The position numbers were made by a program, and so were the translations under genes. A stretch of 24,346 nucleotides of DNA. Origin: Alphaproteobacteria bacterium (GTDB lineage: Bacteria > Pseudomonadota > Alphaproteobacteria > Paracaedibacterales > JBAWWF01). Below the pieces are notes generated by a model. It made no database searches. It was not told where the DNA came from and saw only the letters and a list, made by a program, of their open reading frames with translations. The DNA is taken from NCBI GenBank assembly GCA_037146895.1, contig JBAWWF010000001.1, positions 1 to 24,346 of the forward strand, given 5' to 3'. Every line of letters begins with the position of its first letter. Position 1 is the stretch's first letter. Positions 1,315-4,906 of the stretch are shown here, piece after piece.

Positions 1315-2226
1315 ATGACACAGAAAACACCCCCCCGCGAAGATGGTACATCTTTTTTGCCAGTTCTTATAGCCTGTGCAGGCAGTATTTTGATCGGTGT
1401 ATCTCCTATTTTCGTGCGTAGTTCGACCTTGGGGCCAATGACAGTTGGTTTTTACCGAATGCTCTTTGCTCTACCGTTGTTGTGGATATGGATGCAATGG
1501 GAAAAGCATCATGTTGATAAACAAGTTCTAGTAAAAAAAGATTATTTTATATTGGCTTTAGCCGGAGGGTTTTTTGCCGTTGATTTAGCCTTATGGAATT
1601 TTTCAGTCAACCATACAACCATTGTTAATGCGATTCTTTTTAATAATACAGCGGCGTTTTTTGTGCCCCTATGGATGTGGCTTGTTTTTTCTGAAAAGCA
1701 ATCCGTACGCTTTATCGTTGCGGCAATTTGTGGATTTTTGGGATGCGTTCTCCTTGCTGGCGAAAGCTTTACCATTAGCATTGACTATTTTATAGGCGAT
1801 ATTATATCCATAACCTCAGGTTTTATGGTTGCTTCGTATATCATTGCCATTAAAAAAATCAGAGAACGTCTGGCTACCGGAGTATTGATGTTTTGGACAG
1901 GCATTGCGTCGTTGATTGGTTTGGGAGGGCTGGGAGTCCTCTTTGGTGAATCTTTTTGGCCATTAACACGTTATGATTGGTTTAGTGTCCTTGGGCAGGC
2001 AATCCTGGTGCACGTTATGGGTCAAGGATTACTCGCCTATGCCATGGGGAAAATCACAGCAAGCTATGGTGCTTTAATTCTTTTATTGTCGCCTGTCACC
2101 GCAGCAATCCTTGGGTGGATATTTTATGGAGAAGCTCTAAGTGTGATAAAGTTTGTTGGTATGTCAGTCATTATGATCAGCATCATTGCTGTGCAGGAGA
2201 AACAGAAAAAGCTGGCGGTTCCTTGA
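1315..2226 (+). CDS. DMT/EamA family transporter
   Basis: About 10 hydrophobic segments in two repeats. SPIFVR, FYRMLFALP and LLLSPVTAAILGW..GE are typical EamA features. Confidence 0.9.
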   Translation: MTQKTPPREDGTSFLPVLIACAGSILIGVSPIFVRSSTLGPMTVGFYRMLFALPLLWIWMQWEKHHVDKQVLVKKDYFILALAGGFFAVDLALWNFSVNHTTIVNAILFNNTAAFFVPLWMWLVFSEKQSVRFIVAAICGFLGCVLLAGESFTISIDYFIGDIISITSGFMVASYIIAIKKIRERLATGVLMFWTGIASLIGLGGLGVLFGESFWPLTRYDWFSVLGQAILVHVMGQGLLAYAMGKITASYGALILLLSPVTAAILGWIFYGEALSVIKFVGMSVIMISIIAVQEKQKKLAVP

Positions 2227-4054
2227 TGATTTCATCAAGATTTACATTTGCTGCAACATAAGGGAAAAAGCCACGATCACGTCCTTTCTGATAGATTTCT
2301 CTCAGTGTTGTTGGATCCTTAGGATCCCAATAGTCTAGCGGATAAACCCCTAGTTTTGGATTATCTATTTGTGCAGCTTTAATAATCTTGAGTTGGTCTT
2401 TGTAGTTCTCTGCAGGATCAATAGAGTAAGTCTTTTTACGAAAATCATACTCACCAAATAATGACTCGCTCATAATCATATCAATGTCTTTGGCAACAAA
2501 CGGTAGAATCTTATAACCGCGATTCATCATGATGATGATGGTGGGATGCTGCCTGCGAATCTCTTTAATAAGTAGGATAACGGCTTGGGTGGTTCCTTCA
2601 TGTTTTGGAATTTTATCAATCTCAGTAACATCATCGACTGTATCAATGAGGATCCCCGCAAAGCCTTGTTTTAACAAGGTCGGCACTTTTTCCTCCAAGA
2701 TGTGTTTGGCCCAATCTTTCGAGCGCAGATCTATAAGGTAGCTTCCTGGCCAGTTAGCATTTTCTTTAACAAGCAATCCTAAGGTTTGCGCTTTAGCAAA
2801 GAAAGGCTCCTCTTTGTAGATTTCAGTCAGGCTCAAATAGCCCAGTAGTTTTTTACCCTGGGCTTGTAGGGGCTTGAGAGATAGACAGGTGTTGGGCTGT
2901 AAAATAAGAAGGGAATAATCCTTAACCTCAGCTATATCACATATACCGTTTACATCGGTTTTATAGAACGCTGCCCATTTTTGTGGCTGTATAACAGGTT
3001 CAGCATAAACAGGCTGCGAAGTACAAAAAACGAAGAGCATACCAGCAATAGAAGCCCCCAGCTTGCGCAGATCATCAAAATTTCTTTTGAAGGGAAGCTT
3101 TTCGCGTATGTGCTTGCGTAGGGCTAGACGTCCTTTCATCCACTCTAGGGTTTGACTTAACCCATCAACAATAGACATTTGCGCACTTACGCCCAAAAGC
3201 TCATTTAATAAGCTTGGATCACCGATAGATTCATAGATATCGCCTTTGCGTGATTTGCGATAAAGGCACTGTCCTTGAGAATCCGTCAGATCGATAATAT
3301 GGTGTGCAAGGGCTGAGATGGTTGCCTCTTCTCCTGTGCAGGCGTTGACAACATAATGACCCCTTTTTTCGTTGTGCAGTTTTTCCATTGCAGCCATAAG
3401 AGCCATAACGGCATCACTGATATACAGAAAATCGCGAACCTGACTACCATCACCAAATATAACCAGATCCTTGTGGTTAATTGCTCGATGAATGAAAGCA
3501 GAGATAACACCTGAATAAGGGTTCAAAGGATCCTGTAGTGGTCCGTAAACATTAAAGAAGCGAATGCCGATTGTCGGGACATTATGGATTAGATCAGCAA
3601 TTCGACCTTGCAATTCACAATGATATTTATCACAGCCGTAGGAGGAAATAGGGTTAATTACAGCGTCTTCTCTGATAGGGAATTCTTGTTGGTGACCATA
3701 GACAGCAGCCGAGGAAGCATACACCACAGGGATTTTACGTTGCCTAGCTTGGGAAAATACATTCAGAGTTCCTGTTGCATTAATGGTGTGCGACTTTTCC
3801 CATTCTTCATTGCAGCGTTGGGTGGAGGTAACGGCGGCTAAGTGGAAGCAACCATCGACCATATTCATCAATGATTCGAGAAGAACTGTATCTAAAATGC
3901 TGCCTTGAACAAGCGTTGCTTCAGCGGAGCAATTCGTAGCCAACCCACCAGATAAGTCGTCAAGAATGGTAACTCTGTTGCCTTGCTTGGCAAGAGCATA
4001 ACTTAAATGAGAACCAATAAAGCCACACCCACCTGTAACTAAATAATGTTTCAT
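2183..4054 (-). CDS. Fusion of an NAD-dependent epimerase (GalE/PelX-like SDR, aa ~1-305) and an endo-alpha-1,4-polygalactosaminidase (PelA-hydrolase/GH114-GH166-like, aa ~352-615)
   Basis: N-terminal half: TGGCGFIGS Rossmann motif, YASSAAVYG, YGCDK (YxxxK), RFFNVYGP, IFGDGSQVRDF. C-terminal half: GYLSLTE, NANWPGSYLIDLRSKDW, QGFAGILIDTVDD, MMNRGY, MSES, LDYWDP. One uninterrupted frame. Confidence 0.85.
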   Translation of the reverse strand: MKHYLVTGGCGFIGSHLSYALAKQGNRVTILDDLSGGLATNCSAEATLVQGSILDTVLLESLMNMVDGCFHLAAVTSTQRCNEEWEKSHTINATGTLNVFSQARQRKIPVVYASSAAVYGHQQEFPIREDAVINPISSYGCDKYHCELQGRIADLIHNVPTIGIRFFNVYGPLQDPLNPYSGVISAFIHRAINHKDLVIFGDGSQVRDFLYISDAVMALMAAMEKLHNEKRGHYVVNACTGEEATISALAHHIIDLTDSQGQCLYRKSRKGDIYESIGDPSLLNELLGVSAQMSIVDGLSQTLEWMKGRLALRKHIREKLPFKRNFDDLRKLGASIAGMLFVFCTSQPVYAEPVIQPQKWAAFYKTDVNGICDIAEVKDYSLLILQPNTCLSLKPLQAQGKKLLGYLSLTEIYKEEPFFAKAQTLGLLVKENANWPGSYLIDLRSKDWAKHILEEKVPTLLKQGFAGILIDTVDDVTEIDKIPKHEGTTQAVILLIKEIRRQHPTIIIMMNRGYKILPFVAKDIDMIMSESLFGEYDFRKKTYSIDPAENYKDQLKIIKAAQIDNPKLGVYPLDYWDPKDPTTLREIYQKGRDRGFFPYVAANVNLDEIIKEPPAFSVSPAQQ

Positions 4055-4075
4055 ACGTCACTGATGAGTACCAAT

Positions 4076-4121
4076 TTAACCATGATTTAATGGTAGCATA
4101 ACCATCTTAAAAATTGATTAA
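4076..4121. promoter_or_regulatory. Two CtrA-type boxes (TTAA-N7-TTAA) upstream of the epimerase-hydrolase gene
   Basis: TTAA-CCATGAT-TTAA at 4076-4090, which contains TTAACCAT, and TTAA-AAATTGA-TTAA at 4107-4121. TAACCAT recurs between them at 4099-4105. Confidence 0.6.
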
Positions 4122-4153
4122 GCAAAATAACTACGTTATTTTTTCTCAAGTCC

Positions 4154-4906
4154 TTAGGTTGTATGTTGGCGAAAAGCCTCATAGAGGCTAACTGCTGTCG
4201 CAATTGAAACATTCAGGGTGGTGAAGTTTGCTTGCGTTGGTAGCCGCACTAGGAAGTCGAGGTTTTCACGGGTTAAACGTCGCAGCCCATCGCCTTCGCT
4301 CCCCAGAACAAATGCCATTTTTCCTTTAAGATTAATAGCATTCAGAGACTGCGACGCGTCTTCAGCAAATCCACAAGTCCAGAACCCTAGGCTTTGTAAT
4401 TCTTTGAGTGCTTGGGCAAGGTTGACAATGCGAATCAACGGCACGGCCTCAAAAGCCCCAGATGCCGCCTTCAGCAAGGCTGCCGTTTCCATTGGTGCAT
4501 GGCGTTCAGTGAGAATTAGTGCTTTAGCACCGAAAGCTGCACAGCTACGCAAGATAGCCCCAACATTGTGCGGGTCCGTCACTTGATCTAAACAGACCAC
4601 AATCTGGTTTTCTTGGGCGCACCCTTCAAGAACAGACAGAGACAAGGCCGGGAGAGGTGCTAGCTCACAAGCAATGCCTTGGTGTACCGCATCAGGTCCT
4701 AAAAGCTGTTGCAGAAAGCGTCTCTCAACTATTTCAACAGCAGCAGGGGCCGCAAGCCCATCAAGAAGAGGCTTGGCATCCTGTTCATTAACAAGGAGAA
4801 TGCGATAAATCTTTCGATTTGGATTATGGATAGCTGCTTTACAAGCATGCCACCCATAAATAACCAGGCGCGAAGCTTGCTTTGTTTTTGTGATGTTCAC
4901 TTTCAT
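4154..4906 (-). CDS. rlmB: 23S rRNA (Gm2251) 2'-O-methyltransferase RlmB, SpoU/TrmH family
   Basis: IYGWHA, VHQGI, CLDQVTDPHNVGAILRS, GSEGDGLRRL, LNVSIA. Start placed at ATG 4906; the track extends the ORF to 4945. Confidence 0.92.
   Translation of the reverse strand: MKVNITKTKQASRLVIYGWHACKAAIHNPNRKIYRILLVNEQDAKPLLDGLAAPAAVEIVERRFLQQLLGPDAVHQGIACELAPLPALSLSVLEGCAQENQIVVCLDQVTDPHNVGAILRSCAAFGAKALILTERHAPMETAALLKAASGAFEAVPLIRIVNLAQALKELQSLGFWTCGFAEDASQSLNAINLKGKMAFVLGSEGDGLRRLTRENLDFLVRLPTQANFTTLNVSIATAVSLYEAFRQHTT

Follow-up and report, generated by a model that had tools for sequence, protein, structure and literature searches.

We analysed a stretch of 24,346 nucleotides from an uncultured alphaproteobacterium (positions 1 to 24,346 of contig JBAWWF010000001.1, assembly GCA_037146895.1; hereafter the window), which belongs to a 1.40-Mb metagenome-assembled genome (MAG) of 313 contigs, 79% complete and with 45% GC. 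On its minus strand, one stop-free open reading frame (ORF; 2183..4054, 623 aa plus stop) joins a PelX-like epimerase to a hydrolase resembling that of PelA, with a signal-peptide-like segment between the two. We consider it likely, from sequence and modelling, that this gene encodes a functional two-domain accessory enzyme of a Pel exopolysaccharide system, combining a cytoplasmic epimerase and a periplasmic hydrolase in one chain. In such an enzyme, the epimerase (aa 1-305) would fold and stay in the cytoplasm, where it would convert UDP-N-acetylglucosamine (UDP-GlcNAc) to UDP-N-acetylgalactosamine (UDP-GalNAc), and the conserved basic linker (aa 306-331) would sit against the cytoplasmic side of the inner membrane. 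The Sec signal peptide that the hydrolase has kept (aa 332-351) would engage the translocon in an N-in, C-out orientation, and the hydrolase itself (aa 352-623) would be translocated to the periplasm. There it would trim an alpha-1,4-linked polymer of N-acetylgalactosamine and galactosamine (GalNAc/GalN), made by a pelD'E'FG core and a porin-like gene product encoded elsewhere in the genome.

All four parts lie on the minus strand. The extended SDR (short-chain dehydrogenase/reductase) domain, of the PelX-like UDP-hexose/HexNAc C4-epimerase type, occupies 3140..4054 (aa 1-305) and is followed by the basic linker, which starts with Met306 (3062..3139, aa 306-331). The internal signal-peptide-like segment, made of a hydrophobic core and the residues Q-P-V-Y-A, covers 3002..3061 (aa 332-351), and the PelA-hydrolase-like barrel of the GH166 type covers 2186..3001 (aa 352-623). 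The frame also contains two in-frame ATG codons, at 3139 (M306) and 3040 (M339). An earlier reading made from the sequence only had described this ORF with its motifs, linker, core, cleavage site and ATG codons, and we recovered all of them at the same positions. Both halves were matched by the profile hidden Markov models that it had proposed as a check: Epimerase (PF01370) over aa 5-236 with an E-value of 1e-49, and Glyco_hydro_114 (PF03537) over aa 393-607 with 55 bits (cut-off 27).

The N-terminal half appears to be a PelX-like UDP-GlcNAc C4-epimerase, with a predicted UDP-GlcNAc/UDP-GalNAc specificity. Indeed, when residues 1-310 were compared with all solved structures, the top matches were 6WJB, 6WJ9 and 6WJA (E 3e-47, 164 bits, aligned over aa 3-301). 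These are structures of PelX from Pseudomonas protegens, a UDP-GlcNAc C4-epimerase with an S-x24-Y-x3-K motif (bioRxiv 10.1101/2020.05.26.111013). Other UDP-GlcNAc/UDP-Glc 4-epimerases, WbgU and WbpP ranked below them, so that the earlier assignment to a PelX-like SDR epimerase with intact motifs was borne out. The NAD-binding GxxGxxG is present as G8-G-C-G11-F-I-G14, and in a phmmer alignment the catalytic residues S115 and Y139-G-C-D-K143 fall on S121, Y146 and K150 of PelX, the loop from Ser to Tyr being one residue shorter here. No equivalog cut-off of NCBIfam was reached by the fusion protein (134 bits for GalE, with 262 needed).

The C-terminal half is best described as a PelA_H-like enzyme of the GH166 type, which by its relationships would act on an alpha-1,4-GalNAc/GalN polymer. 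Its profile matched the PelA hydrolase domain (5TCB) over the whole domain with an E-value of 5e-27, the best among solved structures, followed by TM1410 (now GH191; 2e-10) and 9EP5 (2e-5), an entry whose molecule name reads GH114 and whose title reads GH191. Identity to PelA is about 22%. The AlphaFold2 model, built on 68 family members, has a predicted local confidence (pLDDT) above 90 over aa 360-610, and Foldseek ranked 5TCB first for this half (TM-score 0.86, E 1e-17), ahead of GH191 (about 0.76) and Ega3/GH114 (0.73). The acidic motifs D471-T-V-D474 and E530-S531 are kept. E530 sits at the position of PelA E218, as seen in the alignment with the E218A variant 5TSY; D471, N511 and E530 are invariant in the 68 family sequences, T472 and D474 nearly so, and the family-invariant Y575 is also present.

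Two other assignments were considered for this half and rejected. The first was membership of GH114 (Ega3-type): despite the PF03537 match, solved GH114 chains score below PelA and GH191 in both sequence and fold. Thus, from the earlier description as an alpha-1,4-galactosaminidase-type TIM barrel with DTxD and ES residues, the barrel and the motifs stand and the GH114-type label gives way to a closer relationship with PelA and GH166. The second was orthology to full-length PelA. The protein ends about 10 residues past the barrel and is devoid of the deacetylase and of the other two C-terminal PelA domains (mixed alpha/beta and beta-rich), while full-length PelA-like family members reach about 950-1010 aa; since three of the four PelA domains, deacetylase included, are missing, we do not regard it as a PelA orthologue.

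What separates the two halves is, as judged by homology, the hydrolase's own retained signal peptide. At their N-termini, standalone homologues have signal peptides of the classical Sec or the lipoprotein type; a conserved W-[AV]-V-Y-Y comes about 5-10 residues later, and in a family alignment of full-length and hydrolase sequences the internal segment aligns onto the N-terminal signal peptides of 60 such proteins. The uncharged run measures 17-24 aa in the fused proteins (standalone median 19, interquartile range (IQR) 16-22), the best 10-residue Kyte-Doolittle mean is 2.3-2.8 (median 2.5, IQR 2.3-2.9), and the distance from the end of the core to the conserved Trp is 14-19 aa (median 16, IQR 12-19). 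The sole difference lies in the number of residues before that Trp, 359 in the fusion protein against a median of 32.5. An internal signal peptide between the halves had been proposed earlier, and the match in position, length, hydrophobicity and spacing argues for it.

The sequence features expected of a signal peptide are all present and within the family range. The net positive linker precedes a hydrophobic core of about 13 residues, LGASIAGMLFVFC (aa 332-344), and the putative cleavage site QPVYA/EP places A351 (nt 3004-3002) at -1, V349 at -3 and a Pro at -4, with E352 (nt 2999-3001) after the cut. The mean Kyte-Doolittle value of the core over 19 residues is 1.29 in the fusion protein. 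Core length is about 13, 11 and 13 residues in the fused proteins P0001, P0002 and P0003, all of which keep P-V-x-A; the core itself is only 33% identical, with a ratio of non-synonymous to synonymous substitution rates (dN/dS) of 0.42. As a separate observation, an unfused hydrolase homologue from another alphaproteobacterial MAG (locus L057, 3842-4768) has S-R-R-S-L before its hydrophobic stretch, which resembles a twin-arginine signal; judging from this sequence, some members of the hydrolase family may use the twin-arginine translocation (Tat) pathway instead of Sec.

The linker that precedes the signal-like segment carries 10 Lys/Arg and one His against three acidic residues, and 25 of its 26 residues are identical in P0002. 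Over these 26 codons we counted 11.5 synonymous and 1.5 non-synonymous changes, giving a dN/dS of 0.016, which makes the linker the most constrained part of the protein. In the AlphaFold2 model, aa 306-319 belong to a helix (295-319) that continues out of the epimerase; it is interrupted at L-P-F-K-R-N, and a second helix follows (326-345). Because the short n-regions of standalone signal peptides hold no counterpart of this 26-residue basic stretch, and because the constraint on it is the strongest in the protein, the comparison suggests that the linker acquired its function in the fused state. Such constraint is a pointer to a specific binding partner on the cytoplasmic side of the membrane, which might be the synthase complex.

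The fusion is old and shared by relatives. We looked for proteins covering both halves in a search of 5.8 billion protein clusters and found only three others: P0002 (619 aa, 77% identity), P0003 (613 aa, 69%) and P0004 (670 aa, 35%). P0002 and P0003, both metagenomic, align end to end with the fusion protein and have the same in-frame junction, so that the fused homologues in relatives that the sequence-only reading had asked for do exist. The P0002 locus (L002) has the same local synteny, including a convergent EamA gene. Between it and the window, synonymous divergence (dS) is about 1, which leads us to reject the alternative, raised earlier, that the two genes were joined recently by accident. 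Purifying selection acts on both halves, with a dN/dS against L002 of 0.086 for the epimerase and 0.20 for the hydrolase.

P0004 was first a candidate for a fourth, distant fusion, and was rejected as a frameshift read-through of two overlapping genes. In its DNA (L004:10690-11020) the +1 frame encodes the canonical end of the epimerase, the frameshift being near the epimerase 3' end, and the hydrolase, which is GH166-like with C-terminal HEAT repeats, has its own Met and signal peptide. The identical protein sequence is recorded in contigs from at least two runs. This false fusion of the same gene pair is what speaks for an artefact or a pseudogene in our case as well, with two genes joined by a fresh frameshift or by a mistake in sequencing or assembly. 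We reject that explanation here. Indeed, the epimerase C-terminus is intact and in frame in this clade, three lineages diverged to a dS of about 1 share the fusion, and gap-free contigs from three independent studies run across the linker and the epimerase end. These are Logan contigs from three freshwater runs, with at least 99% identity; they cover the fusion stretch in part. X1 (3060-3399) and X3 (3045-3279) span the linker and the epimerase end, and X2 (2925-3198) is the only one that also spans the signal-like segment and the cleavage site. Two pieces from a fourth run and study, X4, flank the junction (2763-3069 and 3137-3287). Mapping over the junction had been suggested as a check, and the contigs from the three studies reveal no indel.

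In the databases that we searched, the architecture is very rare and makes up a single cluster at 50% identity. When the C-terminal half was used for an exhaustive profile search, 2457 relatives were returned, and among the best 150 of these nearly all are standalone proteins of 260-310 aa, a few are PelA-like with about 1000 aa, and an epimerase fusion occurs only in the query's own cluster. A word-index search with the C-terminal half alone gave no match, which, given the 2457 profile relatives, reflects the limit of sensitivity of that search. One long profile match, P0202 (841 aa), proved to be a tandem GH114-like protein with Ig domains and no epimerase fusion. For GlmS, also encoded in the window, the relatives reach 84% and 80% identity, and all others stay at or below 62%; since these relatives parallel those of the fusion protein, they suggest a small clade of uncultured freshwater Alphaproteobacteria with the fusion in every known member. 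Across 40 genomes of the same order, all of them from other families, we found generic SDR matches at no more than 34% identity and no match to the C-terminal half, and the fusion gene is thus not a trait of the whole order.

Relatives of the two halves also indicate how the fusion came about. The closest standalone relative of the C-terminal half, P0121 (38% identity), is encoded at locus L012 immediately behind an epimerase of 291 aa with 47% identity to the N-terminal half, the two genes sharing an ATGA stop/start overlap. In L057, the order is pelF-pelG-epimerase-hydrolase, with an epimerase that is again 47% identical and a 56-nt overlap between the last two genes. From these comparisons, separate overlapping genes look like the ancestral state, and the fusion is most likely a derived state that arose by the in-frame joining of a pelX-like gene and an overlapping downstream gene of the PelA-hydrolase type. 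One small indel in such an overlap would be enough to create it. The sequence-only reading had set two observations against a genuine fusion, separate ORFs in relatives and an indel in the reads: the former occurs in the distant relatives L012 and L057, and the gap-free contigs are free of the latter.

Met306 lies where the start codon of the downstream gene sits in L012, overlapping the epimerase stop codon, and it is kept in all three fused relatives. It could therefore be asked whether the hydrolase is mainly made as a separate pre-protein from this codon (ATG at 3139), the full-length chain mattering only as an epimerase; the Met306 product would equal an ordinary pre-protein with a long n-region. 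We judge such internal initiation unlikely. The separate epimerase of L057 also ends in W-M, so Met306 need not be the relic of a start codon and may belong to the epimerase. No promoter-like site was found upstream of ATG 3139 on the same strand, and no conserved Shine-Dalgarno sequence precedes it (GAGTGG here, which is weak, and GCGTGG in L002, which is no such motif), an argument that counts little since the annotated start codon is without one too. Moreover, in the absence of a stop codon, ribosomes finishing the epimerase would run into the hydrolase and the fused chain would be made anyway. Finally, an n-region of 26 residues would be far longer, and far more conserved, than those of standalone signal peptides.

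The sequence-only reading had noted that the window has no pelD/E/F/G-like synthase genes; this is true of the 24 kb, where we found no pelDEFG genes, but pelF, pelG, a pelD-like and a pelE-like gene are present on another contig of the MAG (C59). There, pelG scores 345 bits and pelF 372 bits (NCBIfam PelF NF038011, cut-off 100), next to a 386-aa pelE-like ORF, a 91-aa ORF and a 324-aa pelD-like ORF, whose product combines a membrane region with a weak match to GAF and is devoid of a GGDEF domain. A search of the genome with the Pfam PelD_GGDEF profile gave no match, and as the control genomes were equally unmatched, this negative is uninformative. A 449-aa gene with a signal peptide spans the ends of C72 (L087 4400-5473) and C59 (L010), and its neighbours in a protein language model suggest a PgaA/PelB-like porin candidate with a short TPR region and a barrel. 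Joining the two contigs, we infer the locus pheS-pheT-serS-porin'-pelD'-orf91-pelE'-pelF-pelG.

In L002, the same porin', pelD' (77% identity) and pelE' (62%) genes are near the fusion gene: they start 1.2 kb away from it, on the far side of the EamA gene. About 20 of the 58 genome loci with a hydrolase homologue have pelG or pelF adjacent, and L013 displays the order pelD'-pelE'-pelF-pelG-hydrolase. In the MAG itself, the fusion gene is the single GH114/GH166-type gene. Two small CE4 deacetylase genes are found on C50 and C77, with no established tie to Pel. Beside the Pel genes, contig C37 (L011) has a pgaA-pgaB-(234-aa ORF)-pgaC locus, which serves poly-beta-1,6-GlcNAc and adjoins a TssG gene of type VI secretion. 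With this pga locus and the Pel core, the genome holds two synthase-dependent exopolysaccharide systems.

Several points weigh against an enzyme that spans the membrane and serves the Pel pathway. Sec substrates do not usually have a folded domain of 305 aa before their signal peptide, the predicted segment starting 331 residues from the N-terminus, and a core of about 11-13 residues is marginal for a stable uncleaved anchor. In this genome, the fusion gene sits not beside the pel core but among housekeeping genes (YceD, ubiquinol-cytochrome c chaperone, EamA, SpoU methylase and AhpC, with glmS and glmU farther away). No PelA-type deacetylase was found in the 79%-complete genome, so the polymer and its processing may differ from canonical Pel. 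In addition, the AlphaFold2 input alignment consisted of full-length and hydrolase sequences only, leaving a pLDDT of 35-50 over much of aa 118-303, and the low-confidence N-terminal half of the model gives no information on the relative placement of the domains.

The modest hydrophobicity of the segment and the large folded domain before it could also mean that the hydrolase is not exported, the segment being vestigial, the protein cytoplasmic or peripheral, and the C-terminal half inactive or repurposed. We consider this improbable. Indeed, none of the family-invariant catalytic residues is lost from the C-terminal half, purifying selection acts on it, and the substrate of the hydrolase family is extracytoplasmic. 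The segment, moreover, changes in sequence but maintains its composition and spacing, which is what a functional signal peptide should do. The membrane-spanning two-domain enzyme remains the explanation that we favour. According to the positive-inside rule, a positively charged flank stays on the inner side of the membrane, and since the charge lies on the N-terminal side of the segment, an N-in orientation is predicted. Many bitopic proteins of the inner membrane have a cytoplasmic N-terminal domain of considerable size, which makes the proposed topology feasible.

In a membrane-spanning enzyme of this kind, cleavage by signal peptidase I at VYA/EP is, on the sequence, about as probable as its absence. 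Left uncut, the protein would be a single bitopic enzyme. Upon cleavage, the linker plus the spent signal peptide would keep the epimerase at the membrane, and the hydrolase would be free in the periplasm. To the strict version of the latter, a true polyprotein that signal peptidase I cuts between A351 and E352 into an anchored cytoplasmic epimerase and a soluble periplasmic hydrolase, which is also what the sequence-only reading preferred, we would give a little less than an even chance. It would account for a core of signal-peptide rather than anchor length, and for P-V-x-A being kept in three fused relatives while the core varies; standalone homologues, besides, are all built as cleavable pre-proteins or lipoproteins. 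However, three sequences give little power to detect selection on a cleavage site, and the long N-terminal extension might make the signal sequence an uncleaved signal anchor. In yeast, whether a signal sequence is cut has been shown to depend on its n- and h-regions (PMC8277137); for bacterial signal peptidase I, both effects are presumed. More tentatively still, the spent signal peptide and the linker of such a two-compartment polyprotein might act as a C-terminal tether that parks the epimerase beside the Pel synthase. If so, precursor supply and polymer trimming would be co-localised and produced in a 1:1 stoichiometry.

Much of what surrounds this gene is already known, namely the function of PelX, the adjacency of pelX and pelA, PelA_H and the SDR-PelD proteins; what appears new is a PelX-like and a PelA_H-like enzyme in one chain that is predicted to cross the membrane. 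The literature that we searched contained no account of PelX fused to PelA_H, nor of a Pel protein whose signal peptide is internal. Like PelX, the epimerase described here has the extended SDR fold, GxxGxxG and the Ser/Tyr/Lys triad, and the PelX gene is typically upstream of pelA, directly so in 70% of 136 published pelX-containing loci. It differs from PelX in being, as predicted from its sequence, covalently joined to a hydrolase, with a 26-residue basic tail and a hydrophobic segment. The C-terminal half shares with PelA_H (GH166; 5TCB) the barrel, the catalytic Glu and the D-T-x-D motif, in a family tied to pelDEFG loci. Standalone PelA_H proteins are known, for instance BCE_5582 of Bacillus cereus (bioRxiv 10.1101/768473); these are secreted via N-terminal signal peptides, whereas the putative signal peptide of the fusion protein is internal.

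Gene fusions have been published for exopolysaccharide systems in general, including those of a glycosyltransferase (GT) to PgaB. Closest to our case are the SDR(epimerase)-PelD fusions of Gram-positive pel loci, with the SDR at the N-terminus (bioRxiv 10.1101/768473). There too an SDR precedes a membrane-embedded Pel component, tethering precursor supply to the machinery. However, the PelD partner (transmembrane, GAF and GGDEF regions) keeps both parts cytoplasmic, while the partner here is a predicted exported enzyme, and most SDR domains of SDR-PelD proteins are degenerate, while the SDR motifs of the fusion protein are intact.

Outside Pel systems, the galactosaminogalactan cluster of Aspergillus fumigatus (Uge3 and Ega3; GH114, 6OJ1) also brings together a C4-epimerase and a barrel of the alpha-1,4-galactosaminidase type, again for a polymer of GalNAc/GalN, Ega3 having an N-terminal transmembrane helix as anchor and an extracellular catalytic domain. 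In that eukaryote, however, the two genes are separate, and the structural match of Ega3 to the C-terminal half is weaker than that of PelA_H. A precedent for the layout is FbcH, the cytochrome b-c1 precursor of Bradyrhizobium japonicum, which is processed at an internal signal peptide. Like it, the fusion protein would come from a single gene with an internal Sec-type signal peptide, an upstream part in or at the membrane and a downstream part in the periplasm, but the upstream part of FbcH is a polytopic membrane protein and that of the fusion protein would be, from its sequence, a soluble cytoplasmic enzyme.

The fusion is an independent genomic argument for placing PelX-type epimerases and PelA-type hydrolases in one pathway, and extends this link to the little-studied loci of Alphaproteobacteria, Chlamydiota and others in which pelDEFG accompany a short hydrolase. 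It is also a natural test case of a Sec signal peptide placed behind 300 folded residues, and asks whether bacteria split the cytoplasmic and periplasmic enzymes of one gene by signal peptidase. The family of the C-terminal half has already been explored for anti-biofilm enzymes.

As for the neighbourhood in the window, the 3' end of the fusion ORF overlaps the convergent EamA-family gene (1315-2226, plus strand) by 44 nt (2183-2226), against only 4 nt in L002. The genes glmS and glmU, for UDP-GlcNAc supply, lie about 14 kb from the fusion gene (17783-20935, minus strand). A scan of 2000-4300 for promoters and terminators gave chance-level matches only. In the 99-bp region upstream of the fusion start codon, we noticed a pair of TTAA-N7-TTAA motifs (4076..4121, without strand), 22-67 bp from that codon, which resemble CtrA boxes; one of them holds TTAACCAT. 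The 24-kb window has no third match, but 23 of 100 shuffled sequences also gave at least two window-wide; the pair could be a regulatory site of the fusion gene. Finally, predicted ORFs of nuclease families, AAA-ATPase/PDDEXK_9 and PDDEXK_2, recur at 21762-23459 (plus strand) and 13254-14144 (plus strand) of the window and at L010:1-570. A PDDEXK_9 fragment adjoins pelG on C59, and these recurring nuclease ORFs may mark points of rearrangement.

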